From contig CAWBSL010000003.1 in the NCBI GenBank assembly GCA_963791435.1, positions 289,136 through 353,135 of the forward strand: a stretch of DNA of 64,000 nt, read 5' to 3'. This DNA comes from Candidatus Dormiibacterota bacterium. GTDB taxonomy: Bacteria > Chloroflexota > Dormibacteria > Aeolococcales > Aeolococcaceae. The notes beneath the pieces were generated by a model, which was not told where the DNA came from, did no database searches, and saw only the letters and a list, made by a program, of their open reading frames with translations. Positions 657 through 39,095 of the stretch are shown here, one piece after another; the stretch's first letter is position 1; each line of letters starts with the position of its first letter. A program made the translations under genes and the position numbers.

Positions 657-888
657 ACCGAGACCTGAAGCAGAGCCGGCCGACCCTCAGCATAACGCCG
701 TGCTCCGATGCACAACTGACACGAGTTACGCCGGCCGCGGCCTCCGTTCCAGGTCGGCCGTGGTGGCGACGGTGGTGTTCTTCGTCTGCTTCCTGGCAGG
801 CATCGCCTGGATCGTCTTCGTCGCGATCAACGTGTTCGGAACCAACTAACGCAGACGTCGGCGGTGGCTCGTCCCGAATCGAGCCGTG

Positions 889-1551: not shown

Positions 1552-1572
1552 TCCCGACGCTGGAAGATGCGG

Positions 1573-1881: not shown

Positions 1882-1894
1882 GGATGCTGCCTCC

Positions 1895-2332
1895 TTAGTG
1901 ATTCACGTCCGACGTTGCGTCGAGTTCCACAAGAAGCCGTTGCACCCGTTCGTCGATTTCGTCGCGAATGCGCCGGACGACTGGCAACGGCTTGCCGGCG
2001 GGATCCTCGAGCTCCCAGTCGAGGTAACGCTTCCCCGGATAGAAAGGACAGGCGTCGCCACATCCCATCGTGATGACGACATCCGCCGCTCGCACGGCGT
2101 CGTCGGTCAAGGGCTTGGGGAACTCTTTCGAGATGTCGAGTCCGACTTCGCTCATCGCCTCGACGACCGCCGGATTCAAGCGATCGGCGGGCTCAGATCC
2201 GGCCGACCGGACGCGTACTTTCCCGTTCGCCCTGTGGTCGAGCAACGCGGCCGCCATCTGCGAGCGCCCGGCGTTATGGACACACACGAACAGAACTTCA
2301 GGCACGTCCGTCACAAGCTTGCCCTCCACCAT
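1895..2332 (-). CDS. arsC: arsenate reductase, thioredoxin-coupled LMW-PTP type
   Basis: CVHNAGRSQMA P-loop (CX5R) at the N-terminus, ~145 aa, plus DPxG and GCGD motifs typical of LMW-PTP ArsC. Confidence 0.7.
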   Translation of the reverse strand: MVEGKLVTDVPEVLFVCVHNAGRSQMAAALLDHRANGKVRVRSAGSEPADRLNPAVVEAMSEVGLDISKEFPKPLTDDAVRAADVVITMGCGDACPFYPGKRYLDWELEDPAGKPLPVVRRIRDEIDERVQRLLVELDATSDVNH

Positions 2333-2414
2333 GACCGTTGCTACCAGAGATACCTCGTGGCGAAACCGCAGCGCCGAGGACCGCCAAGCCGATCGACCTT
2401 CGCGATCCTAATCG

Positions 2415-2467
2415 TGCCGGGAGAGGGAGTCGAACCCTCACGAGGTTGTCCTCGGCGGTTTTTGAGA
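2415..2467. repeat. attL: 53-bp direct repeat identical to the 3' end of tRNA-Leu(CAA) at 16555..16607
   Basis: Exact 53/53 match tgccgggagagggagtcgaaccctcacgaggttgtcctcggcggtttttgaga; flanks diverge immediately outside. Confidence 0.85.
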
Positions 2468-2690
2468 GCCCGGTCTGAGCGTTTCCGCGTGTCACCGTGG
2501 GGCGTCGCGTATTCGGCGTCCACGATGGCCGTGACTCCGTGTGCTGCTGCGGTGTGCGGGCTGACGGTCGCGTAGGGGTACGCGTAGGGGTCCTATGCCT
2601 CGGATTCCCAGTATTGGCTCCGCCGCGCACCTCGTCGCCGGAGCGCCGACCACACGCGGGGATATTCGAGTGTTAAGCGTTTCGAGGTCC

Positions 2691-3410
2691 TTATGACGTC
2701 TCTGGTCGGGCGAAGCTATCTCGCGCTTGAATATCAGTCGGCGGCTCCATCCTTCCGTCGCGGATGGCCAGATGGACGTCACATCGGGCATTCACCGCTG
2801 GGTCGTGGGTGGCGACTATTACCGTGGCGCCGGTTCGTGCATGCAGCTCGATGAGGAGCTCGACAATTGTGTCGCCGGTCGCAGAGTCGAGGTTCCCGGT
2901 GGGCTCATCCGCAAGCAGCAACGGTGGACTGACGATGAGCGCCCGCGCAATTGCGACCCGCTGCTGCTCACCACCAGACAGCTCCGACGGCAACGCATCA
3001 CCTCGGTCGCCCAGGCCCACCTGCTCAAGGAGTTCGAGCGCTCGACGCTGCAATGCCTTCCCGGCTTCGTAGGGAAGCAGCGGCGCTGCTACATTGTCAG
3101 CTGCCGTCAATGCGGGCAACAGGTGAAATCGTTGGAACACGAACCCCACCTTGCGCCGGTAGGTGACCAGCTTCCGAGGCGGCAGTTCGTCGAGCTGCGT
3201 CTCTCCCACCCTCAAGGTGCCCGACGTGAGGATGTCCATGCCACCGATCACGTGCAGCAGCGTGGACTTCCCCGATCCCGACGGACCAGTGATCGCCACC
3301 AATGACCCAGCAGCGATGTCGATGTCAACGTGGTCCAGTGCCGTCTGCGACCGCTCGCCGGCAGGATATTCGCGCGCCAGCCCACGTCCGGTGATCGCGA
3401 CGCCCGGCAT
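2691..3410 (-). CDS. ABC transporter ATP-binding protein (MacB/LolD/FtsE-like), island copy
   Basis: Walker A GPSGSGKST, signature LSGGEQQRVAIARAL, Walker B LLLADEPTGNLD; ~90% identical to 39096..39815. Confidence 0.85.
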   Translation of the reverse strand: MPGVAITGRGLAREYPAGERSQTALDHVDIDIAAGSLVAITGPSGSGKSTLLHVIGGMDILTSGTLRVGETQLDELPPRKLVTYRRKVGFVFQRFHLLPALTAADNVAAPLLPYEAGKALQRRALELLEQVGLGDRGDALPSELSGGEQQRVAIARALIVSPPLLLADEPTGNLDSATGDTIVELLIELHARTGATVIVATHDPAVNARCDVHLAIRDGRMEPPTDIQARDSFARPETS

Positions 3411-3413
3411 TGG

Positions 3414-5810
3414 TCAGTCCTCCGCCAGCGCTGCTGCGGGTGCCGTCTGCGATGCCCGCCAGGCAGGAATCATCAGCACCGCACCCACCAGGGCAAGTCC
3501 GATCATTGCGGCCAATATCGCCGAAGGCGCAACCGCTACTGCCGATCCCGTCAAGATTGCCGCGAGCCCAAGCCCAACCGCACCGCCGGCGATAGCACCC
3601 ACCACGCCGACCATCATGCCTTCCGTGAAGGCGAGACGGAAGAGCGTCGCGGGCCGCCATCCCGTGGCTGCCAGCACCGCCTGCTCCCCAGCACGATCGC
3701 GCAGGTTCACCGCAAGCACATCTGCGACGCTGAACGCGCCAAGCAGAAGCGCCAGAACCGCTGCAATCAGGTCCACGCTGCGCACCTGGAGACTCACCAG
3801 GTTGCCCAGTGCAGTCCCAACGACCTGGCCTTGAAATGCCAGTTGCACGGCGAGTAACAGCGCGAACGCCGCGACGCCGATGAACAACCCGAGCGCACCG
3901 GTGATCAAGCGCGAGGGACGGCGCAGCAGATTCGCACGCGCGATCCCAGAGACCTGCCGGACCGCACGGTGACGTCCGCCACCACCCGGCACGGAGTACA
4001 CCGCATCAAGCGGACGGCCGCGCGTCGCCGCATACGCAGGCGCGAGACCGGCAACGCACGCGAGGCCAAGGGCGATCGGCACCACCAGAAGTGCATGCCA
4101 CCAGGGCAGGTCAAGGCGCAGGGCCAGCGCCAGTATTTCGGCTAACGCTGCGCCAATCACACCCGTGACCATACCGACCAGGGCAAGCTCGCCCAGCACG
4201 AGTCCGAAGAGAGCTGCCCGACCCCATCCGAGACACGCCAGCACTCCGAGTTCGGTGCGTCGCGAGCGTACGCTCGCGTAGGCGCCGTTGGCGAGAAACA
4301 GTACGCAGACAACAAGCACGAGCACAAAGAGCACCAGGCTCTTCGCATCAACCGCGTTCAGCACCACGAGTGCTGCGCCCTTGCGCACCCAGCCTTCTGC
4401 CACGGTGAGCGCCGGCTCGCCGCAGCACCCGGCCGGAAGATCGACGTCAATGGTGGTGGGTGACGATCCTGCGGTGATGTCGACCTGCAAACCGGTCGCC
4501 TTCTTGATCGCTGTCGCTACCGCGAGGATGCGAGCGCGATCGATCGGCTCGAAGCCATGCACATTTGCCACTCGGACGCGAATCGCACTGATGGGAGCGG
4601 CGGTGTCCGTGTTGGCGTAGCGGGCGCAAGGTTCGCCGGGAGCGTTCACATAGCAAGAGTTGGAGAGCATCTGTTCAGCCGCTGTCAGGCTCGTGAGCAG
4701 AAGCGGCGGCTGAGCCACGTAGCCGCCTAGGTTCATCGTCGGTCCAAGTGGTCGATTGTCGAGCGCCTTTCTCGACGCGGCATTCGCACCGGTCACAACA
4801 GGCGGGTAGTACGTCTCCAGCGGCACCGCGCTCAGCGGGCTGAACCCGGGCAGCTTGTCCGGATCGAACCGCCCAACCTCATCGAGTCCCACAAAGCCTA
4901 TATGGAGGGTGTTCAGATTGTAGATGTCGTTGCCGCGGTGCAATGTAAGCCCACGGAACTGAGTGTCCTGGTTCCCAGGGGGCGCCAGCGTAAATGGCGG
5001 TTGGCCTGTCGGGTCCGAGTTCCAAATGCTGGCCGGATTACTCGTCGGAACCGCAATCAGTCCATTCGGGCCGGAGCGGTACTCGACCTGTGAGGTCGTC
5101 CAGTAGTTGTCCGACCCGCCGCCCTCGTCGAAGCCGTAGCCCGCGCTTCCACGTCCCGTCGACTGCATGCCGGCAAGGGCGTTCAGCGCGGCTGTGTAGC
5201 CGCTTTGCGCCGAAACGGCTCGCTGGGCCACGCTGGCACCGCCAAGACTTCCCAAGAAAGAACTCACTACGCCAGCGGTGGTGTTGGACAGTGCCGTCGC
5301 CACGTCGACCCCTGGCGGGAGGTTCAGACGCTGGATGCTCGCAGTCAGCGACTGGTCGAGGAACGTGCGCGACGAGGCGATCACGGGAAGGTCATCCTCA
5401 ATGACGTCCCCCGGCGCCTGCTGGGCCGGCGTGATCAGCCCCTGCAACTCAGATAGATACTGTCCCGCCACCAGGGTGTGTTGCAGGCCGACCAGCTTCG
5501 CTTCCTGCACCGGATCGACGGCGGACAGCAGCACGGGAAAGTTGAAAGCGATGGCGACGCCCGGCTGCGGACCCACCCCCAGGTCGGCGCCCGATCCGAC
5601 TGACGGAGTCTTTCCTGAGAAGCATTCGATAGCGCCGCCAACCGCGCTATCGAGTGGGCCGGTTGGCGCGTTTCCAAGCGCGTTTGCACACACCTGTGCC
5701 AGCGTCGCCTGGCCGGGTATCGCTTCGCCGAATGACGCCTCCGGCCCATGCGGCAGTTGGGGGTTGTAGTTGGGAAGCCGCATGAAGGCATCGCTCGGCG
5801 TGTAGTACAC
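3414..5810 (-). CDS. FtsX/MacB-like ABC permease, C-terminal ~800 aa (extracytoplasmic domain plus FtsX TM bundle); N-terminus displaced by frameshifts
   Basis: The C-terminal TM region is ~80% identical to the chromosomal paralog 36294..39092. The reading frame stays open upstream to ~5925 and is homologous there (YVYYTPSDAF vs YVYITRNAMAP). Confidence 0.6.
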   Translation of the reverse strand: MYYTPSDAFMRLPNYNPQLPHGPEASFGEAIPGQATLAQVCANALGNAPTGPLDSAVGGAIECFSGKTPSVGSGADLGVGPQPGVAIAFNFPVLLSAVDPVQEAKLVGLQHTLVAGQYLSELQGLITPAQQAPGDVIEDDLPVIASSRTFLDQSLTASIQRLNLPPGVDVATALSNTTAGVVSSFLGSLGGASVAQRAVSAQSGYTAALNALAGMQSTGRGSAGYGFDEGGGSDNYWTTSQVEYRSGPNGLIAVPTSNPASIWNSDPTGQPPFTLAPPGNQDTQFRGLTLHRGNDIYNLNTLHIGFVGLDEVGRFDPDKLPGFSPLSAVPLETYYPPVVTGANAASRKALDNRPLGPTMNLGGYVAQPPLLLTSLTAAEQMLSNSCYVNAPGEPCARYANTDTAAPISAIRVRVANVHGFEPIDRARILAVATAIKKATGLQVDITAGSSPTTIDVDLPAGCCGEPALTVAEGWVRKGAALVVLNAVDAKSLVLFVLVLVVCVLFLANGAYASVRSRRTELGVLACLGWGRAALFGLVLGELALVGMVTGVIGAALAEILALALRLDLPWWHALLVVPIALGLACVAGLAPAYAATRGRPLDAVYSVPGGGGRHRAVRQVSGIARANLLRRPSRLITGALGLFIGVAAFALLLAVQLAFQGQVVGTALGNLVSLQVRSVDLIAAVLALLLGAFSVADVLAVNLRDRAGEQAVLAATGWRPATLFRLAFTEGMMVGVVGAIAGGAVGLGLAAILTGSAVAVAPSAILAAMIGLALVGAVLMIPAWRASQTAPAAALAED

Positions 5811-6297
5811 GTAGTCGGCACCACCGGGATATACCGAGGCGCCGTTGGCCGCTTTCCAGGAAAGGCTGACTCTGGAAGAGTTGATGCGCGGCTGACGTGA
5901 TCGCCGATCCGATTGGGATCGTCACTGTCGCCGACAGGAACACGTAGCCGATGTTCGCGATCGGTGCGGCCACGGCCACACCCTGGAGCGACTCGATCCG
6001 CTGCCATTGCGCCAAGCTGATTCCGCCGAAGGTATCTGCGAGGTAGTTGTCCCGAACCAAGTTGCTCTGAGTCTCGACAGCGTTGGCCGCACCTTTCGGA
6101 CGTACCAGAATGTCGTAGGCTGGCCGCGCAGCCGCATCGACGGTGCCATGGACCGCCAGTTCACTCGTCGAGGCAGCGGCGGTGAGCAAGGAGAAGCTCA
6201 CCGCCGCGACCACGATGCCTGCTCCCAGAGCGATCGAGCGATCACGGCGCGATCGGACCTGCTGCCCAATCATCCGCCAAAGTCTCCTCGAGACCAT
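5647..6297 (-). pseudogene. N-terminal fragment of the same FtsX-like permease (separate frame); gene 3414..6297 is interrupted by at least two frameshifts near 5990 and 5865
   Basis: MVSRRLWRMIGQQVRSRRDRS...VAVAAPIANIGY aligns to the N-terminus of the intact paralog (MASKGMWRVIGRQVRSRRDRS...VTVAAPIAILGY). Homology then moves to the 5435..6007 frame (RVPVGDSDDPNRIGDH vs RVSVERVTDDGLTRQTDAP, and LPESAFP vs chromosomal LPESVFP), then to the 3414..5810 frame. Confidence 0.5.
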
Positions 6298-6450
6298 GTC
6301 TTTATGATGAACCGGTGGGATATGGAATGACGGTCAACGTGGCGCTGCAACCCACCGACGATCGCTTTCAGTGCATCGGCATAGCATTTTCGATGTATCG
6401 ACTTGGCCCATCAGCTGCTCGACGCGCTTGAGGCGAAACGCAACTGCCGC

Positions 6451-6479
6451 TTGACAGTTGGTCCCCAGAGTGCTACTAC
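6451..6479 (+). promoter_or_regulatory. candidate sigma70-type promoter for the precursor-peptide operon (TTGACA, 17-nt spacer, TACTAC)
   Basis: Consensus -35 hexamer TTGACA at 6451-6456 and a -10-like TACTAC 17 nt downstream, ~30 nt upstream of a GGAGGG RBS and ATG 6512, in a 160-bp divergent intergenic region. Confidence 0.35.
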
Positions 6480-6511
6480 CTCGTCAGGTCAATTCATGGA
6501 GGGCATCGAGC

Positions 6512-6709
6512 ATGGCGCACCTCGTCTCTAAGCTGGCTGACCGAGTCCTCGCTACCGTTTTGCCCGAAAGGAGCGCAGGGGCGCCCTGCATGCCATTCTG
6601 TGTGTGCGTTAAGGACAGTAGCTGTTCCGCCCCGGCTTGTGCAAATCGCTGCATCAACTCTTTCTGCCACACCACGTACATCTGCCACGATGGTTGCACA
6701 ACGTGCTAG
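6512..6709 (+). CDS. Cys-rich RiPP/bacteriocin-like precursor peptide (65 aa: 24-aa leader plus 41-aa core with 10 Cys)
   Basis: MAHLVSKLADRVLATVLPERSAGA / PCMPFCVCVKDSSCSAPACANRCINSFCHTTYICHDGCTTC; GGAGGG RBS 7 nt upstream of the ATG; no Sec-type signal; first gene of a co-directional operon with redox, export and peptidase genes. Confidence 0.6.
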   Translation: MAHLVSKLADRVLATVLPERSAGAPCMPFCVCVKDSSCSAPACANRCINSFCHTTYICHDGCTTC

Positions 6710-7040
6710 TAGACGACGTTCCGGCAGCAAATACTTAAGTAGCAACCGGCATCGCTTTCATTAGGTACAGTCCGGCGCCCTGGCGGATGATGAGTTGCGA
6801 GGTGCCTCGTCTTTCCTCAGTTCCGGTCGGCGTATGACGCGGCCCATGCTCCGCCGCCGCGCGCGCTGCACCTGTGGCATCCGACCACGCTGGAATGGGA
6901 TTGCGAGTTGAAGCACGCATTAGCAGCGCCGCGACTACTTGTGGCTTAGTCGAGCGGGTGAGTGCTTCACACGAAGGCACTGGTAGATACCTGGTACATA
7001 GAATGTCTCCGACAGATAAGAAGCGACGAGCGAGCGAGCG

Positions 7041-7562
7041 ATGCTTCCATATCTGACCATGTCGTGCAGGCTTCTCCTCGGCCTCGTCTTCCTCGTGTCA
7101 GCGGTGACCAAGCTGCGCACTGGCGCGACGCGGCGGGAGTTTGTGCTCTCTGTACGCGCACTTCTGGGCTACGAGCGGGCACTCTCCGTAATCCTTGCTA
7201 CCGCGTCGGTAGCCGCGGAACTTGTGATCGTAGTGCTCCTGACGCTGCCCAGCACCATGGCGTTCGGCTTCGTCACCGCGGCGCTTCTCCTCGTGGCATA
7301 CGCAGTTGTGCTTGGCCGTGCCCTCAAACGCGGTGTTCGGGCGCCGTGCCAGTGTATCGGCTCATCGACGGCCCCGATCCGTGCGTGGCTCATCGCTAGA
7401 AACATCGGCCTAGTCCTGGTCAGCCTCATAGGCCTTGCGGGTATACACTCAGAGCCTCAAATCCAAGTGTCAACCGGTTTGGCAGCGAGCATCGCGATAG
7501 CGATCTTTGGCGTCATCGTCGTCGCTTCCTTCGACGACTTCCTCTACCTTGTCGAGGGTTAG
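7041..7562 (+). CDS. MauE/DoxX-like polytopic membrane protein, putative disulfide-bond-formation (thiol oxidase/quinone-coupled) component
   Basis: 173 aa, ~4 predicted TM helices, CQC motif in a loop; architecture resembles MauE, which is required for disulfide formation in the methylamine dehydrogenase small subunit. Stop/start abut the next gene (7562/7565). Confidence 0.5.
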   Translation: MLPYLTMSCRLLLGLVFLVSAVTKLRTGATRREFVLSVRALLGYERALSVILATASVAAELVIVVLLTLPSTMAFGFVTAALLLVAYAVVLGRALKRGVRAPCQCIGSSTAPIRAWLIARNIGLVLVSLIGLAGIHSEPQIQVSTGLAASIAIAIFGVIVVASFDDFLYLVEG

Positions 7563-7564
7563 CC

Positions 7565-8128
7565 ATGGCAGTCGGAACGCTTGCCCTCGCCGCAATCGCC
7601 GTAGCAGTAAGTCTCTTTAGCCTCTTGCTCAATCTAGGGGTAGTGAGGCGACTCCGCGAATATTCCGCGCACTCCGGGGCATTTCCGGGCTTTGACTCGG
7701 GACCTCGTCCCGGGGCAGTGCTACCCGACTTTACCGCGAATACCACCGTCGGCTCTGCGATTAGCGCGACGGCGTTTGCGAACGGCGATGGGTACATCGC
7801 GTTCCTCTCAGCGTCATGCGAAGCCTGCAAGTCCCAATTCCCACTTCTCGCGCACTACGCTGACGCAGCAAGCATAGATCGGCTCCACTCTCTCGTGGTC
7901 GTGGCGGGTGATCCGAGGGGCGATAGCCTCTACGCGCGCGATGCGACACGCTTTGCGCAGGTTGTCCTCGAAGACGGATCGCTGGTAAGCGCCTTCGATA
8001 TCCGCGGCTTTCCTACACTCGTTGGTGTGCGCGATGGTCGGGTGGTCGTGAGCGCACCCTTAGTCGAGGCGCTCTACCAAACGAACACGAAGCAAGAGAG
8101 TGCCCACGCGGGTTCAGCGCGCTCCTAA
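7565..8128 (+). CDS. membrane-anchored thioredoxin-fold thiol:disulfide oxidoreductase (TlpA/ResA/DsbE-like)
   Basis: N-terminal TM anchor (LALAAIAVAVSLFSLLLNL) followed by a thioredoxin-like domain with a CEAC CxxC active site (FLSASCEACKS). Confidence 0.6.
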   Translation: MAVGTLALAAIAVAVSLFSLLLNLGVVRRLREYSAHSGAFPGFDSGPRPGAVLPDFTANTTVGSAISATAFANGDGYIAFLSASCEACKSQFPLLAHYADAASIDRLHSLVVVAGDPRGDSLYARDATRFAQVVLEDGSLVSAFDIRGFPTLVGVRDGRVVVSAPLVEALYQTNTKQESAHAGSARS

Positions 8129-8153
8129 TCTCGGATCGCGGTTGGCACTGGCG

Positions 8154-9953
8154 ATGAGGCTGTGCTGGACGTCTGCGCCCACATCGATAGCGCTAATGTT
8201 AGCGACCAGCATCGGGCTGGGGTTTGTCCCCGTTGCCTACGCCTTGCTAACGCGGGTAATCATTAACTCATTGGTCGGGCATCAAAGCGTGCCGACCATC
8301 CTCGGAATCGCAGGCCTCGCCATCACGACGGCCGCACTATTGATTTTAGCTCCACTCACTAGTTACGCCGTCGCTGAGTTGAATCGCAAGCTCGAGGTCG
8401 GCATGCAGGGTGACCTGTTTGCTGCGGTAGGACAACTGTATGACCTACGGCTATTGGAGAGCCCGAGATTCCTGGATCGATTGCGTCTCGCCCAGCAGGC
8501 GGGACTGAGTGCGCCGGCCCAGGTAGTTGCAGGTTGCCTGGCGACCGTCCAGAGCGGGGTCACGCTGATTGGCTTCGTAGCTGCGTTGGCGGTACTGGAT
8601 CCGTGGATCGCCGTACTCGTGGTCGGCAGTGGTATTCCGGCGATTGTCGCTGAGCTCCGCCTAGGCACATCACGTGCTGAGATGTATCTGCGCGTTAGCC
8701 CCTTTCGGCGTCGGATTCTTGGCTATATCTCGCTCTTGGTTGACCCGAATGCCGCTCAGGAGGTCCAAGCGTTCGGACTTGGCTCTCTTCTGAGGGAGCG
8801 ACTGCTGCGAGCGATTGATCACGCGACGCGGGCTGAACGTACCCAGGATCGACGTGAGGTACGGACGCGCACAGTGCTGGCATGCATTGCCGCTGCCGCA
8901 AGCGTCGCGAGCCTCAGTTTGGTAGCAGTGGGTGCGCTGCATGGGCAATTTAACGTCGGAGATGTCGCGATCGTGCTCGCGGCGCTTTCCACACTCCAAC
9001 TCAGCCTCTCCGGACTGGTTGCACAATTCGGTCAGATGAGTGGAGCATTGCGAATGCTCGACCACTATCGTGCCGTGATCGCCTCCGCAACGGAAGCGAC
9101 CAGCGGTACGAGCCGAGACGCTGGAAAGGCGCAGGTTGGTATTGGACGGCTGCGCCGCGGCGTGGAGTTGCGTGGCGTCTCTTTTCGGTATGACGAGAGT
9201 CAGCCCTGGGTTCTGCAAGATGTGGATCTGTTCATTCCATTCAACGCATCGTTGGCGCTCGTCGGTCCAAACGGATCCGGTAAGAGCACGATTGTCAAGT
9301 TGCTTTGCCGCTTCTACGATCCCACCCGTGGTGCAGTACTATGGGATGGCGTGGATTTGCGCGAGCTACCCGTCGTCGCTCTGCGTCGCCAAGTCAGTCT
9401 AGTTCTCCAGGATCCGGTTATGTACGATCTCAATGCAAGCGAGAACATTGGCGTTGGGAACGTGGCGTTACTCGCCGATCGAGACGCAATACGCCGAGCT
9501 GCCGATCTGGCCGACATCGACGACGTCCTCGCTCATTTACCTCACGGGTATGACACCCTCCTCAGCCGCCTTTTCTTCGATGATGCGGCTTCGGACGTTG
9601 GAATCGTCCTCTCGGCCGGACAAGCACAACGTTTGGCGATTGCCCGCGCCTTGATGCGCACCGATGCGGACCTGCTCATCATGGACGAGCCAAGCTCGTC
9701 GTTAGATGCCCAGGCGGAGCACCTTCTGCAAGAGCGCCTCAGTCAACTGCGTGGCGGTCGAGCCACGCTCTTGATCTCGCATCGGTTGAGTTCCGTTCGG
9801 GCTGCTGCTCAGATCGTTGTCCTGGACGGTGGCCGGGTCGTGGAAGTGGGTAGCCACCAACAGCTTCTGGAGGTCGGCGGGATGTATGCGGAACTCTTCC
9901 AACTCCAAGCGGCTGGATATGCAGATCTCACCCTGCCCCTCCGATCAAGTTGA
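8154..9953 (+). CDS. ABC exporter, fused 6-TM permease plus ATPase, no C39 peptidase domain; putative peptide exporter
   Basis: Walker A GPNGSGKST, signature LSAGQAQRLAIARAL, Walker B LLIMDEPSSSLD, H-loop ISHRL; N-terminal half hydrophobic. An alternative in-frame start at 8100 overlaps the upstream gene by 29 nt. Confidence 0.8.
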   Translation: MRLCWTSAPTSIALMLATSIGLGFVPVAYALLTRVIINSLVGHQSVPTILGIAGLAITTAALLILAPLTSYAVAELNRKLEVGMQGDLFAAVGQLYDLRLLESPRFLDRLRLAQQAGLSAPAQVVAGCLATVQSGVTLIGFVAALAVLDPWIAVLVVGSGIPAIVAELRLGTSRAEMYLRVSPFRRRILGYISLLVDPNAAQEVQAFGLGSLLRERLLRAIDHATRAERTQDRREVRTRTVLACIAAAASVASLSLVAVGALHGQFNVGDVAIVLAALSTLQLSLSGLVAQFGQMSGALRMLDHYRAVIASATEATSGTSRDAGKAQVGIGRLRRGVELRGVSFRYDESQPWVLQDVDLFIPFNASLALVGPNGSGKSTIVKLLCRFYDPTRGAVLWDGVDLRELPVVALRRQVSLVLQDPVMYDLNASENIGVGNVALLADRDAIRRAADLADIDDVLAHLPHGYDTLLSRLFFDDAASDVGIVLSAGQAQRLAIARALMRTDADLLIMDEPSSSLDAQAEHLLQERLSQLRGGRATLLISHRLSSVRAAAQIVVLDGGRVVEVGSHQQLLEVGGMYAELFQLQAAGYADLTLPLRSS

Positions 9954-9973
9954 GACGCCCACTGACCCGCGCT

Positions 9974-10444
9974 TCAGCGTTGTGCGCCTGTGCTGAGCCG
10001 GCGCACGACAACCCCCGTAATAAGGTCGCTCGCGATCGGACCCCACTGCTTGGAGTCCTGGCTCTCCGGATGATCGCCAACCACTACGATCGACTTTGTC
10101 GGGACGGTTGTGTGAGCAAACGTCGGATGGCCGCATACCACTTCTGATGGCATAGGAGCACCGCTTACTGCAACCAACCGCTTGACCATCCAGTCACCAG
10201 CAGTTGCGCCTGGGGGCAACTGCACCTGCGGTGGCGCTCGCAGGGTGATGATTGAGTTGACCCGGGCGCAGCGCCTGAGTCGGAGTACGAGAAGACGGTC
10301 GCCCGGCTGAAGCGCGGGAGCCATGCTCGATCCCACGACGCGAATCACAATGAATAGTCGCCGGAGCAGCCACCAGGAGAAGAGGAGGACTCCCGAAGTT
10401 CCGAGCCATAGAGTACCGCGGGCTCGGCTTCTGCGTCCCACCAC
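9974..10444 (-). CDS. type I signal peptidase (S26 family, short form)
   Basis: N-terminal TM, catalytic Ser box VVGSSMAP, Lys box WMVKRLVAVSG, box E VVVGDHPESQDSKQWG; 156 aa. Confidence 0.75.
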   Translation of the reverse strand: MVGRRSRARGTLWLGTSGVLLFSWWLLRRLFIVIRVVGSSMAPALQPGDRLLVLRLRRCARVNSIITLRAPPQVQLPPGATAGDWMVKRLVAVSGAPMPSEVVCGHPTFAHTTVPTKSIVVVGDHPESQDSKQWGPIASDLITGVVVRRLSTGAQR

Positions 10445-10558
10445 GTCGCCAGCTTACGTAGAAGGACAGGCTCACGTCTTGTGGTATAGAAACGTAGGTC
10501 TACTGTCTCCAGGCCCTTCGGGTCCGCGATACTGACGCTGCATTTTCGAGCGCGACGA

Positions 10559-13477
10559 CTACCACTGCGCGAGCTCGGGTGACATCCCCTGCCCGCGCTC
10601 GAACTCCAGGTGCGCATCGATCTCGGGGGTGAGCCAACCGGCGACGGCCCTGCCCTCAAGTTGGTCGGACGGCCCGCCATTGGCGTCCTCCGCGTCGATG
10701 CGGTCCACCGCGCGGGCGACAAAGTCGTGCGCGGCACCCTCGGACATGCCTGCCTCACGCAGCCAGGCCTCCGCCTGGTCGTAGACACGCTGAACCACCA
10801 GGCGGTCAATCTCCTCCCCGGCCTCAACCCGGGTCGCCTCCTGGGCCAGCTCGGATCCGCCGAGGATCTCGACCAGGGCGCGCTGTCGATCTGTGGCCAT
10901 CGCCTCGAGGGTGATCCGCTCGGTCGTCTCGTAGCGCTCCGGGTAGTCGAGCGCCAACTCCTTCAATTCGCTGCGGGTCCACGCCTGCACGGTCCGCTCC
11001 TCGGCCGATCGGCTTGTTTCTCTCCAGTGCTCGACGCCGAGCGTGTCCCGCTCCGGCGGCTTGGACACCTCGTAGTAGTGGGTGGCCAGGGTGGCGCGTG
11101 ACATCGCGGTGTACGCCCATTCCCGGGTGGCGCCCTCCGACCCCACCACCAGGGCGATGTCGGCGGTCATCCCCTGCGCCTTGTGCACGGTCAGCGCATA
11201 GCCGCGGTCGATGGCGTCGTAGTGATTGGTGTCGAGGGTCAGCTGGCGCTTGTCGGGACGTTCCAGGGTCAGCGTCTGGTGATCAACATCGACGGCGGTG
11301 ACCACGCCACGGGTACCGTTGCTGACTGCACCGCTGCGCTCGTTGGCGAGACAGATCACCCGGTCGCCCACCTGGTACTCCTTGTCCCCCACGGTGAGCG
11401 CCGGACCGTGGACTCTCCCCTCGGCCACCGACCGGGCGTGGGCCAGTTCGTTGAGGGCGGCCACCTCGTCACGACGCCGGGCGAGGATGACCGTGTCGAG
11501 ACCGCCGGCCTCGAGCCGGGCGTGATCCTCGATCACCTGGACTCGCCGCTCGGCCACTGAGTGGGCGTCATGGATGCGGTCGTAGCGCTCGTACTCGCGG
11601 TACGCCTCGCGCGCCTGACCGTCGCGGAGCAGCTGCAGGGTCGCCCGTTCCCAGTCGTAGTGCTGGCGGATGTTCTCGTGCAGCTCCACCCGGCCGATGT
11701 GATCGCTCAGGGTGCGCATCGGTGCACCCGCTTCGATGGGCTGGAGCTGGAAGGGATCGCCAACCACCACCAGCTTGGCCTCGTCGCGCGCCGCCAGCGA
11801 CACCAGCTCGGCGAGCTGGCGGTCACCGAGCATGCCGGCCTCATCGACCACGAGCACACCGCCGAAGGGCAGGCGCTCGACCTGGAGCTGATGGAGTGTC
11901 GCCGCCACGGTGGTCGAGGCGATGTCCGAGCCCTCCTCGAGGAGCTCGGCAGCGCGTCCTGCCAAAGCACAGCCGACCACCTCGACGCCGGAGGCATCAA
12001 ATGCTTCACGGCAGACCTCGAGCGCGTACGTCTTGCCCACCCCGGCGTCCCCTTCGATCACCAGCACGCCGGCGGGGCTGAGGCAGATCTCCTGGATCAT
12101 GGCCTTCTGGTCCGCGGTGAGCGTCCGACGCGTTGCCATCGCTGCCGCGACGGTGTCGGCGCGGGCCATCCCGACGTCCGCGCCGGCACGCGCTTGAGCA
12201 GACGCCACCATGCCGCGTTCCAGGGCGAGCATCTCCGGCGTGGTGTATCGGAGGTCGTGGCCGGTCTCGGTCCAGCGCAGCAGCGCCTCGGGCTCGGTCT
12301 CGCCCTGGCGCGGCCGGGGTGGCAGAGGCTGGACCGAGTCACGGTCGGCGAGGATCCAGTCGACCGTCAACTCAAGCTGCGCACGGCTCATGCCGAGGGG
12401 TGCGTGCGAGGCGACGGCGCGGATGAGATCGCGGCGCGTGAAGGTCGCCTGCCGGGCGGTGAGCCCGTGCACGCCGAGGATGTCCACCGAGCGCTGCACG
12501 TCGAGACGCCGCGGTTCGAGCGCACCGGGCTCACGCCGGAGCACGGCCTGCACTGTCTCGCCGTCGAGCCCGACGCTCGCGGCGCGCTCGTGCCATCGGG
12601 CGAAGAGATCCTCGGTAGCCGCAACCTCGTGCTTGCCCTCGCGGGTGTCGAGGGTGGCCACCTCGCGCCCGGAGCGTGTGGTGACGTCATACGCGGCCGC
12701 AGCGGCGTCGATCTGCAGCGACCTGCGCGAGAACTCGCGCCGCTGGGCATCCGTGATGCCAACAACCGAGAAGCAGCCCTTGCCGTCGACCACCGTGGAG
12801 ATGCCGAGCTCGCGGACGAGACGGTCGCGCCACTCCGCCTGGACGATGGCTCCGGCCGCCGCGGCGTGCTGGTACAGCGGTTCGCTGTGTAGCTGGCTCC
12901 AGCTCCCGTCGGGCCGCTGCACCCATGTCGGGACAGTGATGTGGGTGTGGAGCTGCGGGTCAACGGTGACGATGCCGGTGGCCGGATCAGTCACCGGGCG
13001 GGCGGTGCGATGCACGAACTCGGGCATGACCAGCTTGGCGCGCACCGCCTCGGTGGTCTTGGTGTCCGGGTTGTACTGGCGCGCCCAGCCGGCGTTGGCC
13101 TGGAGATATTCGGCGGCGGCCTGGACTCCCTCGCCGTGGATGCGCAGGATCATGGACCTGGTGCGCTCGTCACCGAGCGCGTAGAGGATGCTCACATCCT
13201 TGGGCGCTGACACGGTCACGTCGAAGGCGACGACCGTCTGTCTCCGCCAGTGTTTGCCGAGGTCCTCACCGGTGCGTGGATGTGTGCCGGCCAGCACTGC
13301 CGCAAAGTCGATGTCGGTCACCTCGCCGCGCAGACCCAACACTTCCGCACCGGGTCCTCTCCATCGTCCTGGTGACTCACCGCGGGCGGTGTAGTACTCG
13401 AGCTGCTGCTGCGCTACCGCATCGCGCAGATACCGCACCGCCTGCTCGACGCTGGTGAGCTTGCCGATGGAGATCAC
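10559..13477 (-). CDS. MobF-family relaxase/helicase (TrwC/TraA-like), 972 aa
   Basis: N-terminal relaxase domain with His-triad-like LHTHITVP; central RecD-like helicase Walker A LVIEGDAGVGKTY; the C-terminal third is specific to this element. Confidence 0.8.
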   Translation of the reverse strand: MISIGKLTSVEQAVRYLRDAVAQQQLEYYTARGESPGRWRGPGAEVLGLRGEVTDIDFAAVLAGTHPRTGEDLGKHWRRQTVVAFDVTVSAPKDVSILYALGDERTRSMILRIHGEGVQAAAEYLQANAGWARQYNPDTKTTEAVRAKLVMPEFVHRTARPVTDPATGIVTVDPQLHTHITVPTWVQRPDGSWSQLHSEPLYQHAAAAGAIVQAEWRDRLVRELGISTVVDGKGCFSVVGITDAQRREFSRRSLQIDAAAAAYDVTTRSGREVATLDTREGKHEVAATEDLFARWHERAASVGLDGETVQAVLRREPGALEPRRLDVQRSVDILGVHGLTARQATFTRRDLIRAVASHAPLGMSRAQLELTVDWILADRDSVQPLPPRPRQGETEPEALLRWTETGHDLRYTTPEMLALERGMVASAQARAGADVGMARADTVAAAMATRRTLTADQKAMIQEICLSPAGVLVIEGDAGVGKTYALEVCREAFDASGVEVVGCALAGRAAELLEEGSDIASTTVAATLHQLQVERLPFGGVLVVDEAGMLGDRQLAELVSLAARDEAKLVVVGDPFQLQPIEAGAPMRTLSDHIGRVELHENIRQHYDWERATLQLLRDGQAREAYREYERYDRIHDAHSVAERRVQVIEDHARLEAGGLDTVILARRRDEVAALNELAHARSVAEGRVHGPALTVGDKEYQVGDRVICLANERSGAVSNGTRGVVTAVDVDHQTLTLERPDKRQLTLDTNHYDAIDRGYALTVHKAQGMTADIALVVGSEGATREWAYTAMSRATLATHYYEVSKPPERDTLGVEHWRETSRSAEERTVQAWTRSELKELALDYPERYETTERITLEAMATDRQRALVEILGGSELAQEATRVEAGEEIDRLVVQRVYDQAEAWLREAGMSEGAAHDFVARAVDRIDAEDANGGPSDQLEGRAVAGWLTPEIDAHLEFERGQGMSPELAQW

Positions 13478-13870
13478 CGCGAAAACTCGCCCTGCACGAG
13501 CTTCAGCGTAGGGAGAAAACGCCTACGCAGCGCTTACATTCTCGGAACGTTTGATCTGGAAGAAATCAGCGATGCAACTGTGTGCGCTTCAGGGTCGTCG
13601 ATGCGTGTGCGCGAGGCAATGATGGCGGTGAGAACGGACGCGTGAAGCAGATATGCGTTTGTTGAAGGTGAGAGGAGATGGCCGGCAGACGGAGGACCGA
13701 AGTGATGACGAGGAGCACGCGGCGCTGCCGACGCGTCCGATCCCGCAGACTACCCGCCGACGCGGCTGCCCTACTGTCGCGGTGCCAGCAGCGCGGCCCG
13801 AATTCGCGCAGTTACCGACATGCGCGCCACCTGCAAGGCGCAGCTCACCAGCACGAGTGGACGCGGCGTT

Positions 13871-14008
13871 CGCGAATAGCGCGGTGCGCTCGAGCGGCGC
13901 AACGTTCGCGAATAGCGCGACGCTCGCGAAGAGCACGACGCGCGCGAATAGCGCGACGCTCGCGAATAGCGCGACGTTCGTGAATAGCGCGGTGGGCGCG
14001 AACCTCGC
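13871..14008. repeat. tandem iteron array, ~7 copies of an 18-bp unit (CGCGAATAGCGCGACGYT), upstream of the relaxase gene
   Basis: Units start at 13871, 13907, 13925, 13943, 13961, 13979 and 13997 with strict 18-bp phasing; copies degenerate at the edges. The ORFs 13653..14102, 13678..13983 and 13771..14106 are translation artefacts of the repeat. Confidence 0.8.
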
Positions 14009-14558
14009 GAAGTGCGCTGGACGCGCGACGTCTGCGGGAAGCGTGATGTGCGCTGGAATCGCGATGTGCGCGGAATTCGCGCGATCCGCACCATTCGCAT
14101 GATCACGTGGAAGGCGCGAGTGCCGCTAAGTAGCTTTCATCGTAGGAAGCGTGTCAACGTAGTGCGTACGCTCGCCGGGCGGATGCGTCCTGAGCTATCT
14201 GTCAGCCACGTCCTGGAGCCGCGGTGTCAAGGACTCGCGGACTTACCGAGCAGGCTTGCTGGTGTGCTGGTGTGCGGGAAAAGTGTAGGCGCTACGTAAG
14301 CAAATGCATGCCATGCTCGTGCCATGGATATCGCCGACGTGTCGCCGGGTACCGGCTATGTGCGCGGGAAGCCTCGCGCGGATCAGACGAAACTCCCTTG
14401 GGGTGCCGATGAGATGGTGTCGCCTCAAGGCACACAAGGGGCCTACGCTGACAGGGATGCACGAGGCCGACGAGGAACGCCCCCCACGCCAGCGCCATTG
14501 TTCGAGTTCGGCCACGCCGACACCTGTTGACATTCCGCCTGCATCGACACGCGCTCCG

Positions 14559-14720
14559 ATGCTGCTCACCGTTCGCGACCTGGAAGCTGAACTGCAACTC
14601 GGTCGCACACGCACCTACGAGCTGTTGCGCTCGGGCTCCATCCCCGTTATCCGCGTCGGACGCGCACTCCGCGTACCGCGCGATGCGCTGCGCCGCTGGG
14701 TAGACGAGCAGACCGCGTGA
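14559..14720 (+). CDS. xis: excisionase/helix-turn-helix DNA-binding protein (Xis family)
   Basis: 53 aa; MLLTVRDLEAELQLGRTRTYELLRSGSIPVIRVGRALRVPRDALRRWV is a typical MerR-like excisionase HTH; sits upstream of int. The ORF track places it inside a longer ORF starting at 14304. Confidence 0.65.
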   Translation: MLLTVRDLEAELQLGRTRTYELLRSGSIPVIRVGRALRVPRDALRRWVDEQTA

Positions 14721-14738
14721 CCCCGGGTTCGAGCCGCG

Positions 14739-14990
14739 TCAGCTCGCCGGTTGTACCGGTCGCACCGCGTCGTGAAGCCCCTCTGGATCGAGGTCTGCAC
14801 CGTTCGCCCACACCAGCGTGCCCAGCTCTGGATCCACGCTGACCCTGTTGAACTGAGCAATATCACGGAGCGGCTCGAACATCTCGCCCCAGAGCTCGTC
14901 GGCCAGGTCGATGTCGCCGACGACCCCGTCGCTGAACGTGAGCCGGAGCCTGTACTCACCGAGGCGCTCCACGCGCGTGACCTTGACCAT
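14739..14990 (-). CDS. DUF2442-family protein
   Basis: 83 aa; RLRLTFSDGVVGDIDL...ANGADLDPEGL pattern; paired with DUF4160 as is commonly seen. Confidence 0.5.
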   Translation of the reverse strand: MVKVTRVERLGEYRLRLTFSDGVVGDIDLADELWGEMFEPLRDIAQFNRVSVDPELGTLVWANGADLDPEGLHDAVRPVQPAS

Positions 14991-14999
14991 TTCCCAATC

Positions 15000-15269
15000 C
15001 TATGCGAGTGGCTCGATGGACGCCAGCGCCGTGCGCTCGATCACACGTTGCCAGTTGTCTCGCAGCTCCTGCTCGTGCAGGGCCGCCCATTCCATGACAT
15101 GCCCGAGCGCCCTCACCGGTAGCGAACCGTCAAGCACCACCAGCGGCTCGATTCCGATCGACGCTTCATGCTCCCCGTAGGTCGCGTGAAAGTGGGCCGC
15201 ATGGTGTTGCCCGCCGGTCTCCCAGTACATGGTGATGACGATGCCGTAGAAGGCGCTGATCCGCGGCAT
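15000..15269 (-). CDS. DUF4160-family protein
   Basis: 89 aa; MPRISAFYGIVITMYWE...HHAAHFHA motif; immediately upstream of the DUF2442 gene. Confidence 0.5.
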   Translation of the reverse strand: MPRISAFYGIVITMYWETGGQHHAAHFHATYGEHEASIGIEPLVVLDGSLPVRALGHVMEWAALHEQELRDNWQRVIERTALASIEPLA

Positions 15270-15270
15270 G

Positions 15271-16449
15271 TCAGCCCGTGGTGATCAGGCGGGTGAGCCG
15301 GTCGGCCGCGTCGTCGTGCAACTCCTGGAGGACGTCTGCGTACGTGTCGGCCGTGATGCCGATCGTGGAGTGTCCGAGCACAGTGCTGACCACCTTCAGC
15401 TCCGTCCCGCTCGCCAGCATCAGGGTCGCGGCGGCGTGGCGCAAATCGTGGAAGCGACGCACGATCAGGCCGGCTCGGCGAAGGCCGTTCTCGAAGCGAT
15501 GGGTCATCCCCGTCGGCTCCACCGGATGACCGGTGGGGCGCGTGAACACCAGCCCGGCGATCGGCTCGTGCCAGGCCGATCCGATGTGGAGGCGATCCTC
15601 ACGCTGGCGCTGTCGCTGGACTGCGAGCAGGTCGACCAGGGGATCGGGAATCCGCAACGTCCGCCGAGACCGCTTCGTCTTGGGCTCGAGGATTTTGAAG
15701 AGCACCTCCGGGTCGGATCGCTGGTCACGAGGGATGCGGTGCAGAGCGCCGGTGACGCGCAGCACCTTGCGCTCCAGGTCGACGTCGTCCCAGCGCAGTC
15801 CGAGGATCTCGCCCTGACGCATCCCGAGATACAGGGCCGTGCCCACGACCGCCTCGAGCTCGGTATCGCGAAAAGCGTCGAGGATCGCTCGGGCTTCCTC
15901 GGGGCGCACCGAGGCTGCCTTCGTCGCGGACACCTCGAGGGGCTCGGCCAGGGCTGCGGCGTTGCGAGCCACCGTGCCCCATCGCTGAGCGTCAGCTAGG
16001 GCCGAACGGAGCACCGCGCGAGCGTGGTTGACGGTTCGAGGCGCCAGGCCACCGGCGACCGCCTGCCGCATGGCGACGTTCACCTGCTGCGGGGTGAGTT
16101 GCGCCAGCTTGACCCTCCCCAGGAGAGGAATCAACTGGTACTTGATGAGGCTGCGGTACCGCCGCATGGTGGTCGGGCGGATGCTGGTCTGCCCCTCGAT
16201 CCAAGTGGCGAGAAAGTCGCCCACGGTCTGGCGGTCGGAGGCCGGTGCCACCCCGAGAGCGAGCCCGCGGATGGCCGCGTTCATCTTCGCGACCGCGTCG
16301 GCGCGGCTCTTGCCATACAGGCTGCGCCGGACCTGGCGGCCTCTCGCGTCAAAGCCGACCGTTACGCGCGCCTCCCACTGGCCCGGGCGTCGCTCTCGGA
16401 TCGTCCCTTCGCCAAGCCCTCGGCGCCTGCTCGTCACCCCTTCCTCCAA
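15271..16449 (-). CDS. int: site-specific tyrosine recombinase/integrase
   Basis: C-terminal catalytic region HDLRHAAATLMLASG...GHSTIGITADTYADVL (HxxR plus Tyr); N-terminal SAM-like domain; lies ~100 bp from the tRNA-Leu 3' end. Confidence 0.85.
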   Translation of the reverse strand: MEEGVTSRRRGLGEGTIRERRPGQWEARVTVGFDARGRQVRRSLYGKSRADAVAKMNAAIRGLALGVAPASDRQTVGDFLATWIEGQTSIRPTTMRRYRSLIKYQLIPLLGRVKLAQLTPQQVNVAMRQAVAGGLAPRTVNHARAVLRSALADAQRWGTVARNAAALAEPLEVSATKAASVRPEEARAILDAFRDTELEAVVGTALYLGMRQGEILGLRWDDVDLERKVLRVTGALHRIPRDQRSDPEVLFKILEPKTKRSRRTLRIPDPLVDLLAVQRQRQREDRLHIGSAWHEPIAGLVFTRPTGHPVEPTGMTHRFENGLRRAGLIVRRFHDLRHAAATLMLASGTELKVVSTVLGHSTIGITADTYADVLQELHDDAADRLTRLITTG

Positions 16450-16554
16450 ACGTCGGAATCTGTAGGGGTACTGTAGGGGTATTAGCGTCCTGACGTCAAC
16501 GGGCGGCTGGCTTCCGAGGCGCGCGAAATCCAGGATTTGTATTCAAAATCGGCC

Positions 16555-16607
16555 TGCCGGGAGAGGGAGTCGAACCCTCACGAGGTTGTCCTCGGCGGTT
16601 TTTGAGA
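16555..16607. repeat. attR: 53-bp direct repeat copy lying within tRNA-Leu(CAA)
   Basis: Identical to 2415..2467. Confidence 0.85.
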
Positions 16608-16637
16608 CCGCTGCGTCTACCATTCCGCCACCCCGGC
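16555..16637 (-). tRNA. tRNA-Leu (anticodon CAA), type II with long variable arm
   Basis: Reverse complement reads GCCGGGGTGGCGGAATGGTAGACGCAGCGGTCTCAAAACCGCCGAGGACAACCTCGTGAGGGTTCGACTCCCTCTCCCGGCA; cloverleaf with 7-bp acceptor stem including one G-U pair, CUCAAAA anticodon loop, long variable arm. Confidence 0.85.
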
Positions 16638-16702
16638 CAGATGGACAGCGTACCGGCTCTCATCGGGAACCGGAGCGCCAGTCTGCGCGTACTCTCAATT
16701 GC

Positions 16703-17278
16703 ATGGACGACGAGGCGCTCCTCGAGCGGGCACGCCGCGGTGACCGCGATGCCTTTGCAGCAATTGTCACTCGCCACCAGGATGAGCTCTACACGATGGC
16801 ACTCAGGATTCTCGGGACACCGGCCGACGCCGCTGACGTCGTCCAGGAGACGTTCCTTCGCGCGTACGTCAGGATCCCGGTCCTTCGGGGACAGACCATC
16901 CGGGCGTGGCTCTTCCGGGTCGCGATCAACTGCAGTCATGACGTTCAGCGCCGCTCGATCCGCAAGCCCGCGGATCCGCTCGAGGATTCCGAGGGCAACA
17001 TCGTCGAGCTGCCGGATCCGGCACTCGGTCCCGAGGCGAGCGCCCTGGCGCGGGAGCGCGTTGCCGCGGTCCGTGAAGCGCTGCTCACACTCCATCCGGA
17101 CTTCCGAGCCGTGGTGGTCCTCCGCGACGTCAACGACCTCAGCTACGAGGAGATGTCCACCACGCTCCGCATCCCGATCGGCACCGTGAAGTCTCGGCTC
17201 AACCGCTCCCGATCGATGCTGGCCAAGGCGCTGCGCGGAACCGCTGCGGCTCCGGGTTTTGCGGAGGAGCGCGCATGA
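16703..17278 (+). CDS. ECF-type RNA polymerase sigma factor (sigma-70 regions 2 and 4)
   Basis: MDDEALLERARRGDRDAFAAIV...ETFLRAY (region 2) and VVVLRDVNDLSYEEMSTTLRIPIGTVKSRL (region 4). The ORF-track start 16586 would overlap the tRNA, so the internal ATG is preferred. Confidence 0.8.
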   Translation: MDDEALLERARRGDRDAFAAIVTRHQDELYTMALRILGTPADAADVVQETFLRAYVRIPVLRGQTIRAWLFRVAINCSHDVQRRSIRKPADPLEDSEGNIVELPDPALGPEASALARERVAAVREALLTLHPDFRAVVVLRDVNDLSYEEMSTTLRIPIGTVKSRLNRSRSMLAKALRGTAAAPGFAEERA

Positions 17279-39092: not shown

Positions 39093-39095
39093 CCG

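Follow-up and report, generated by a model that had tools for sequence, protein, structure and literature searches.

A probable integrative mobilizable element with a MobF relaxase in the tRNA-Leu(CAA) gene of a Candidatus Dormibacterota genome

We analysed a 64-kb stretch of DNA (64,000 nucleotides; contig CAWBSL010000003.1, positions 289,136 to 353,135), hereafter the window, from a host belonging to Candidatus Dormibacterota. Near its left end lies a genomic island bracketed by two exact 53-bp repeats at window positions 2415-2467 and 16555-16607, whose starts are 14,140 bp apart. The interpretation we favor, with a probability of about three in four, is that the island, 14,140 bp long, represents a canonical integrative mobilizable element (IME), inserted site-specifically in tRNA-Leu(CAA) and mobilised in trans by a helper. 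A preliminary description of this DNA had applied the same label within the same boundaries, and by gene content that label is right.

The two repeat copies agree at 53 of 53 positions and the identity stops at both edges, as established with a repeat finder and by direct reading, which bears out the tRNA 3'-end duplication proposed at the start. An exact 53-mer duplication of this kind cannot have arisen by chance. A 14-mer scan found only these two copies in the window and the repeat is therefore not a dispersed repeat family, an objection that the preliminary description had itself raised. The right-hand copy is the 3' 53 nt of a tRNA-Leu(CAA) gene on the minus strand (16555-16637; ARAGORN, with an Rfam tRNA score of 55.8 bits) and constitutes attR (16555-16607), while the left-hand copy, also in minus orientation (2415-2467), is a distal duplicate of the same 3' part and constitutes attL. 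The repeat spans the gene from the anticodon loop (TCTCAAAAA...) through the 3' end; in the sense of the tRNA it begins in that loop (TCTCAAAAACC...) and ends at the last base of the tRNA. Since the element brings in a duplicate of the tRNA sequence from the anticodon loop onwards, as far as the 3' end, tRNA-Leu(CAA) stays intact. The window also contains two tRNA-Thr genes, the target type of related elements, and both are without repeats and without element genes.

A related genome without the insertion, the comparison suggested alongside the preliminary description, provided a precise empty site. Contigs were fetched by exact-protein look-up with the flanking low-molecular-weight phosphatase (window 1895-2332). 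Four were returned, three with the island and one, L004 (run SRR28023582), without it. In L004 the sequence corresponding to window 16827..16555 runs straight into 2467..1 through one 53-bp copy, a single junction at which a complete tRNA-Leu leads into the left flank. The flanks of L004 are 99.8% identical to the window strain and carry two private single-nucleotide polymorphisms (SNPs) absent from every island-bearing haplotype, which indicates that L004 comes from a distinct strain and makes a mis-join unlikely. The site is filled in L001-L003 and L005-L010. Given the empty site, the insertion is a real presence/absence polymorphism. L008, L009 and L010 all end inside the 53-bp repeat; stops at this place are the expected branching of an assembly graph, so these three contigs are uninformative on a circular form. 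Exact look-ups with the relaxase and with the host extracytoplasmic function (ECF) sigma factor returned no record.

Pfam and NCBIfam searches recovered, between the repeats, the integrase, the DUF4160/DUF2442 pair, the MobF relaxase and the cargo that had been listed there from the sequence. The proposed excisionase gene is present as well: an excisionase-type helix-turn-helix (HTH) protein is encoded on the plus strand, and it is refined here to the 53-aa C-terminal part of a long open reading frame (ORF). The relaxase gene (10559-13477, minus strand) encodes 972 aa in which a MobF relaxase is fused to an SF1B helicase (Pfam TrwC, E=9e-68; AAA_30, E=4e-52), and it scores 208 bits against the NCBIfam MobF model, whose cut-off is 100; the TrwC cut-off is exceeded too. 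The helicase part also matches UvrD_C_2 and SH3_13, and the N-terminus can be aligned with the relaxase domains of known structure from pCU1 TraI, TrwC and F TraI. The catalytic motifs are kept, namely the tyrosine pair (EYY, residues 27-29), an SAPK motif (DVTVSAPK) and the histidine triad (HRTAR...DPQLHTH; HxxxxxDPQLHTH).

The claim that coupling protein and type IV secretion system (T4SS) genes are absent held up in every search that we made for them. Among the ORFs of the element, Pfam, NCBIfam and PHROGs gave no match to coupling protein, VirB4, FtsK/TraB, Rep or phage structural families. Relatives of the relaxase at 45-46% identity, encoded on metagenome contigs L050 and L051, adjoin genes for a VirD4-type coupling protein, a VirB4-like ATPase, a CHAP/SLT hydrolase and a TrbL-like protein. 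With the coupling protein, VirB4-like, hydrolase and TrbL sequences of these two contigs as queries, tblastn found no hit in the window or in 49 other loci (692 kb in total). The queries come from conjugative modules, and the classification as an IME, and not as an integrative and conjugative element (ICE), therefore rests on a test able to detect such genes. The ten largest ORFs elsewhere in the window encode housekeeping and transport functions (Pol I, UvrB, a RadA-like ATPase, CysRS, a ketoacyl synthase and others). An ICE would carry a complete T4SS with a coupling protein, and the 14.1 kb of the island are fully taken up by other genes. The FtsK_SpoIIIE and Rep proteins that define an actinomycete integrative and conjugative element (AICE) had no match in the scanned ORFs, and for a prophage or satellite PHROGs yielded integrase, excisionase, unknown-function and helicase matches only. 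From this gene content, mobilisation in trans is what we infer. The neighbors of the 45-46% identical relaxases suggest the type of helper, a system with a VirD4-type coupling protein and a VirB4-like ATPase. The relaxase-bound single strand would then leave through the coupling protein and T4SS of a co-resident conjugative element, and the likely helper would carry a VirD4-type coupling protein, a VirB4-like ATPase and a CHAP/SLT hydrolase.

The island belongs to a large modular family in which one relaxase type is combined with varied tyrosine integrases and varied cargo. A relaxase scan using one genome per species gave 26 loci, 25 of them at 86-97% identity and one at 63%. Metagenome-assembled genomes (MAGs) of Candidatus Dormibacterota from palsa, SPRUCE and Danish soils account for 24 of the 26, and several of these MAGs contain multiple copies. 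The target differs with the integrase. Four loci (L013, L015, L018 and L033) occupy tRNA-Leu(CAA) and have a 96% identical integrase together with the DUF4160/DUF2442/xis module, while L022 has the integrase type of the window at tRNA-Leu(TAA). Five loci lie at tRNA-Ser(TGA) with an integrase 49% identical, four at tRNA-Ala(CGC) with a Xer-like integrase, and two at tRNA-Thr(GGT) with other tyrosine integrases. Where sequence suffices, a second copy of the tRNA 3' part (38-62 bp) closes the elements at 7.9-15.3 kb. All family members have the conserved block upstream of the relaxase gene that is described below, and relaxase subfamilies at 69% and 48% identity are likewise found in small islands with an integrase and a relaxase. 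The cargo of the sister elements includes a 2260-aa RHS/FG-GAP/TIG toxin beside a Fic protein (L012, 13037-19819), an RHS fragment (L032), WcbI and GH5-like genes (L011) and ABC transporters (L028, L020). In L018 (14295-18344) it is a 1349-aa DUF4011-helicase protein with a REase_MTES_1575 domain, a possible defence gene.

Synonymous sites point to transfer of the element between species. We compared the window with L013, L015, L033 and L018 at the four-fold degenerate sites of identical codons. Identity at these sites was 71-73% for the relaxase, 72-85% for the integrase and 66-83% for DUF4160 and DUF2442, against 33-64% for the host genes encoding the ECF sigma factor, the anti-sigma factor, GH18 and Pol I; one host ORF (19929-20927, minus strand) was an outlier at 70-74%. 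At the protein level the host ECF sigma factor is 88-95% identical to its counterparts in the other species. Since the element is less diverged at synonymous sites than the host genes flanking it, the comparison indicates movement between species. A 1.2-kb relaxase segment compared among 22 copies gave a star-like identity matrix (89-98%) with no grouping by genome or by integrase type, a pattern that fits module shuffling and cross-species spread.

Several individual loci of the family deserve mention. The relaxases of L014, L020, L022 and L031 (residues 500-900) are nearer to every copy than those copies are to each other and sit at the center of the star; such consensus-like relaxases of some long-read MAGs may be multi-copy repeats collapsed in assembly. 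L022 (4174-10000) has the int-DUF4160-DUF2442-xis module twice in tandem before one relaxase, the two copies being parted by a poly-T/poly-A tract with no att copy between them, and this doubling may reflect accretion in tandem or an artefact of assembling long reads. L033 (10001-11672), at tRNA-Leu(CAA), has a relaxase that is internally deleted (residues ~189-608 are gone) and imperfect repeats, and is a decaying copy of the same element type. Relaxases 82-93% identical were also found on short contigs binned as Acidimicrobiales or Solirubrobacteraceae of the Actinomycetota (L019 and L027; protein P0065), which reflect either mis-binning of a repeated element or cross-phylum transfer.

The recombination module is compact. 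From the tRNA inwards, the integrase, DUF4160 and DUF2442 genes are tightly packed on the minus strand, with xis convergent to them. The integrase gene (15271-16449, minus strand) encodes a tyrosine integrase of 392 aa (Pfam Phage_integrase, E=1e-21) with a SAM-like N-terminal domain (Phage_int_SAM_3, E=6e-9). Its catalytic-type motifs GMRQGE, HDLRHAAA and LGHS...DTYADV are visible, it also matches solved integrases, and it is the protein that is 96% identical in the four other species at the same tRNA. The xis gene (14559-14720, plus strand) encodes the 53-aa HTH protein of the excisionase family (Pfam HTH_17, E=7.5e-10; NCBIfam 'excise', 32.3 bits with a cut-off of 28.8), which is also matched by the PHROG 'excisionase and transcriptional regulator'. 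A longer Xis of 138 aa was considered and rejected, as the added N-terminal stretch falls in another frame elsewhere in the family.

The ends of the element have the layout of a lambda-type attP with arm sites, as judged from their repeats. Two arm-type repeats GTAGGGGTA (16462-16481, plus strand) lie between the start of int and the core and make up the P arm. The left end (2468-2690), the P' arm, has two arm-type repeats GTAGGGGTA/GTAGGGGTC at 2572-2592, ~105 bp inside that end, and its ~190 nt are conserved in L013, L033 and L044, which have the same integrase type. Pairs of GTAGGGGT occur at both ends of every element with this integrase type and nowhere else in them, and are absent from elements with other integrases. 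The left end of L044 joins non-tRNA sequence right after TCTCAAAAA; this one contig end suggests that strand exchange may take place in the anticodon loop and that secondary sites would be usable. The integrase, acting on the paired GTAGGGGTA arm sites at both ends and on the anticodon-loop core, would integrate the circle, and together with the 53-aa Xis it would excise the element.

The pair encoded directly behind int resembles a toxin-antitoxin module. DUF4160 (15000-15269, minus strand; Pfam E=4e-20) is a putative DhiT-like toxin and DUF2442 (14739-14990, minus strand; Pfam E=1e-12) a putative DhiA-like antitoxin. Under the name dhiTA, a DUF4160/DUF2442 pair is catalogued among type II toxin-antitoxin systems (PMC8198452), and in Thermus a tandem ORF pair of these domain types was credited by the authors with improved plasmid persistence (PMC12724237). 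The likeness to dhiTA extends to adjacent small genes with the same domain pair in the same order; the difference is that the putative pair of the island is built into the integrase operon. Co-transcribed with int, it would stabilise the element as a toxin-antitoxin module.

A stretch of 1.08 kb separates the relaxase gene from xis and contains two regions of interest. The first is a conserved non-coding block directly upstream of the relaxase gene (13478-13600, minus strand), with the sequence GTAAGCG-N5-GTAGGCG and a 7-bp inverted repeat, GCGTAGG/CCTACGC. Over the ~110 nt that precede the relaxase start, 15 family members show almost no variation, irrespective of integrase type, and GTAAGCG-N4/5-GTAGGCG is retained upstream of relaxases that are just 48-69% identical. 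From this conservation we infer a candidate origin of transfer (oriT) and/or relaxase promoter, and the MobF relaxase-helicase would nick oriT in this block, just upstream of its own gene. The second region is an array (13862-14075) of ~12 degenerate 18-bp units (CGCGACGYTCGCGAATAG) with TTCGCGAA palindromes, lying between the divergent relaxase and xis genes. Arrays of TTCGCGAA-like palindromes with an 18-bp period recur 300-450 nt upstream of the relaxase in L012, L013, L015, L018, L020, L022 and L033. These arrays might serve as iterons, or as binding sites for a protein that regulates the divergent promoters of xis and the relaxase gene. A coding role was rejected, as the array is stop-free in several frames per locus and none of these is consistent across loci.

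The remaining 8 kb, on the left side of the island, hold a candidate peptide cassette. At its center is a gene for a 65-aa cysteine-rich precursor peptide (6512-6709, plus strand; P0001), predicted by gene callers and preceded by a GGAGGG ribosome-binding site, with a leader that ends in AGA and a 41-residue core with 10 cysteines and a calculated mass of about 4.3 kDa. Downstream on the same strand lie genes for a MauE-family membrane protein (7041-7562; Pfam MauE, E=7e-22), a membrane-anchored, MauD-like thioredoxin-fold protein with the CxxC motif SCEAC (7565-8128; weak matches to AhpC-TSA, E=0.007, and MauD, E=5e-5) and a fused permease-ATPase ABC exporter of ~585-617 aa with an uncertain start codon (8100-9953; Pfam ABC_tran). 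The L041 and L044 orthologs of the thioredoxin-fold protein also match AhpC-TSA/Redoxin. The exporter has full-length NCBIfam matches to models of the MsbA, HlyB and bacteriocin-exporter types, all below the family cut-offs. On the minus strand are an S26 protease of the signal peptidase I type (9974-10444; Pfam Peptidase_S26, E=9e-12; NCBIfam sigpep_I_bact, 49.6 bits with a cut-off of 47) and, divergent from the peptide gene, an FtsX/MacB-type permease (3414-6297; Pfam FtsX) with its partner ABC transporter ATPase of 239 aa (2691-3410; Pfam ABC_tran, E=1e-33). The permease, 952 aa when intact, is interrupted here: a 1-nt insertion at 5873, found in this assembly only, breaks the gene up as 3414-5810 and 5647-6297. 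L002, L006 and L008 have the full 952-aa version, whereas in L008 it is the peptide gene that lacks one base, at window position 6600. Both indels are probably long-read errors and less probably real inactivation.

Word-based homolog searches for the peptide and for MauE were nearly empty, and an exhaustive profile-free search of 1.8 billion representatives found two homologs of the peptide. The three peptides share the leader M..LV..AD..L...LP...A.A, in which Ala-x-Ala stands directly before a variable core with 8-10 cysteines, and both relatives adjoin MauE and a thioredoxin-like gene (L044 and L041), L044 keeping the entire cassette in order. On the strength of this leader/core arrangement and synteny, the cargo is a candidate gene set for a leader-peptide bacteriocin, or one like that of a peptide made on ribosomes and then modified post-translationally (RiPP). 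The precursor would be exported, the dedicated S26 peptidase would cleave the leader after Ala-x-Ala, MauE and the thioredoxin-like protein would form the disulfides, and the FtsX/ABC transporter would protect the producer. The chromosome encodes a paralogous FtsX/ABC pair (36255-39815) by tRNA-Thr(TGT) (36144-36217), in which the ATPase (39096-39815) is 88% identical to that of the island and the FtsX permease 50% identical overall, with conserved transmembrane parts and a strongly diverged large extracytoplasmic domain. The divergence of that domain supports the self-protection step. The G+C content is 0.59-0.61 in the cargo and 0.68-0.71 in the relaxase region. In L044 (1-300; 7950-10443) the cassette sits on the conserved left end and is followed by an RHS C-terminal fragment in place of the relaxase, which suggests integration at a secondary site or a composite of two elements.

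Several results weigh against an IME mobilised in trans, or narrow what can be claimed for it. The empty site is known from one 3.2-kb short-read contig, and a mis-join of L004 across the 53-bp repeat is conceivable, though the private SNPs speak against it. The attP junction was absent from the JGI metagenome contigs in two scans, one with degenerate positions and one with gaps, for which the query was the left end, core and right end; the source samples sit in ENA/Logan, so this negative is weak. The candidate oriT region folds no more stably than shuffled sequence, and its 7-bp hairpin is weak and lost in distant subfamilies, so that oriT is a matter of conserved sequence only. The host ORF at 19929-20927 equals the element genes in synonymous-site identity, unlike its neighbors, which may reflect a mis-call or an unusual constraint on its codons. 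We identified no helper in the host genome, the suggested helper type comes from taxonomically unassigned contigs (L050 and L051), and the relatives with a relaxase at least 48% identical are, as far as examined, likewise islands lacking secretion genes. As every relative examined is free of secretion genes, the family has not been seen together with a helper.

This last observation bears on an unlikely alternative, that the relaxase-helicase is mainly a rolling-circle replication initiator preserving the excised circle, with spread that is non-conjugative or rare. The relaxase of ICEBs1 serves rolling-circle replication, which keeps the excised circle from loss. The relaxase of the island has its own helicase and an iteron-like 18-bp array near its gene, no island with a relaxase at least 48% identical was seen beside secretion genes, and several copies can coexist in one genome. 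However, MobF relaxases are conjugative by family, the nearest relatives outside the island clade are in conjugative modules, and the low synonymous divergence of the element genes across species requires an efficient cell-to-cell route. Replication and mobilisation are in any case not mutually exclusive. A bolder proposal also builds on the ~30 contexts, down to 48% relaxase identity, in which no secretion gene lies nearby, and on the fact that no conjugative element for Dormibacterota is reported in the searchable literature. It holds that islands with an integrase and a MobF relaxase are the dominant conjugation-type element of Dormibacterota and spread between species without a canonical T4SS helper, which might occur via an unknown export route or by relaxase-driven replication combined with another uptake path. 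We consider this a long shot.

We think it quite improbable that the island is fixed, or is the decayed remnant of a larger conjugative element and immobile now. The FtsX frameshift in this assembly, the deleted relaxase and imperfect repeats of L033 and the failure to find a circular form would agree with decay. The repeats of the island itself are perfect, though, its int, xis and relaxase genes are intact, and the site is empty in a 99.8% identical strain; three other assemblies of the element do not show the frameshift, and size and architecture are consistent over ~30 loci, none with remnants of secretion genes. It is very unlikely that the element is self-transmissible through an unrecognised minimal apparatus among its own genes, such as the ABC exporter, the FtsX permease and the S26 peptidase. 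S26 peptidases act in some conjugation systems, that of the island has a weak TraF_Ti match (E=0.0014) and no helper is known, but among S26 models it matches signal peptidase I and the Ni-SOD maturation protease more strongly. Moreover, the genes in question belong, together with the Cys-rich peptide, to a conserved cassette of their own (L044 and L041), and this cassette is absent from most family members, which bear unrelated cargo. A prophage remnant or phage satellite is hardly credible: the integrase and Xis match phage families, and DUF4160 and DUF2442 have PHROG matches of unknown function, yet there are no matches to capsid, terminase, portal, primase or repressor, the other PHROG hits are to helicase families (the relaxase C-terminus), and a MobF relaxase is present. 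An IME mobilised in trans is the interpretation we retain.

Dormibacterota is an uncultured soil phylum, and the island is a clean, well-defined exemplar, recently mobile, of a large modular family within it. As read here, the family carries a varied load from one Dormibacterota species to another: toxins (RHS, Fic), transporters, candidate defence genes and a cassette that is a candidate for making an antimicrobial peptide. This compact cassette may specify a new secreted peptide rich in disulfides, along with its dedicated leader peptidase and a MauE/thioredoxin pair for folding. The att sites, arm sites and candidate oriT could become genetic tools, of which the phylum has none. No description of mobile elements of Dormibacterota, or of this island family, was found in the searchable literature.

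Comparison with characterised systems places the element among known kinds. The closest functional parallel is offered by NBU1 and NBU2 of Bacteroides, which share with the island a tyrosine integrase, insertion at a tRNA 3' end (tRNA-Leu for NBU1), a single relaxase and the lack of coupling protein and mating-pore genes; NBU1 is also listed with a toxin-antitoxin module and is mobilised by the co-resident conjugative element CTnDOT (PMC5704250). The NBU elements differ in having MobP relaxases without a helicase domain and Bacteroidota hosts, whereas the island has a MobF relaxase-helicase. According to a 2017 review, the relaxases of known canonical IMEs were of the MobP, MobQ, MobV or MobC families, with no case of MobF or MobH (PMC5704250), and the island fills this gap in the IME literature as a canonical IME with a MobF relaxase. 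Large automated catalogues compiled since 2017 probably include MobF cases, so we do not claim the island as a new kind.

The relaxase shares its TrwC-type domain, tyrosine pair, histidine triad and SF1B helicase with TrwC of R388, TraI of F and pCU1 and the MobF proteins of actinobacterial plasmids. The best matches among plasmid MobF relaxases are at most 31% identical to it, and while 4020 of the 5000 best-scoring MobF relaxase records are on conjugative plasmids, that of the island is in a small chromosomal element. The L050 and L051 modules have the same relaxase family as the island, but with T4SS-type genes beside the relaxase. AICEs such as pSAM2 and SLP1 are similar in size (9-25 kb), in their use of tRNA genes of high-GC Terrabacteria and in the combination of a tyrosine integrase with Xis (PMC10201445). 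They move double-stranded DNA by an FtsK-like TraB and have Rep but no relaxase; the island has a relaxase and neither TraB nor Rep.

For the cargo, the nearest comparison is with the decRiPPter clusters of Streptomyces, in which a MauE homolog (accompanied by MauD in one family) lies beside a predicted small precursor without a methylamine dehydrogenase context; these MauE/MauD candidate RiPP clusters are predictions and are themselves uncharacterised (PMC7794033). The cassette of the island differs in adding an ABC exporter, an S26 peptidase and the divergent FtsX/ABC pair. Taken as a whole, the element belongs to a known kind, and its added value comes from the host phylum, the modularity at the level of the family and the cargo.

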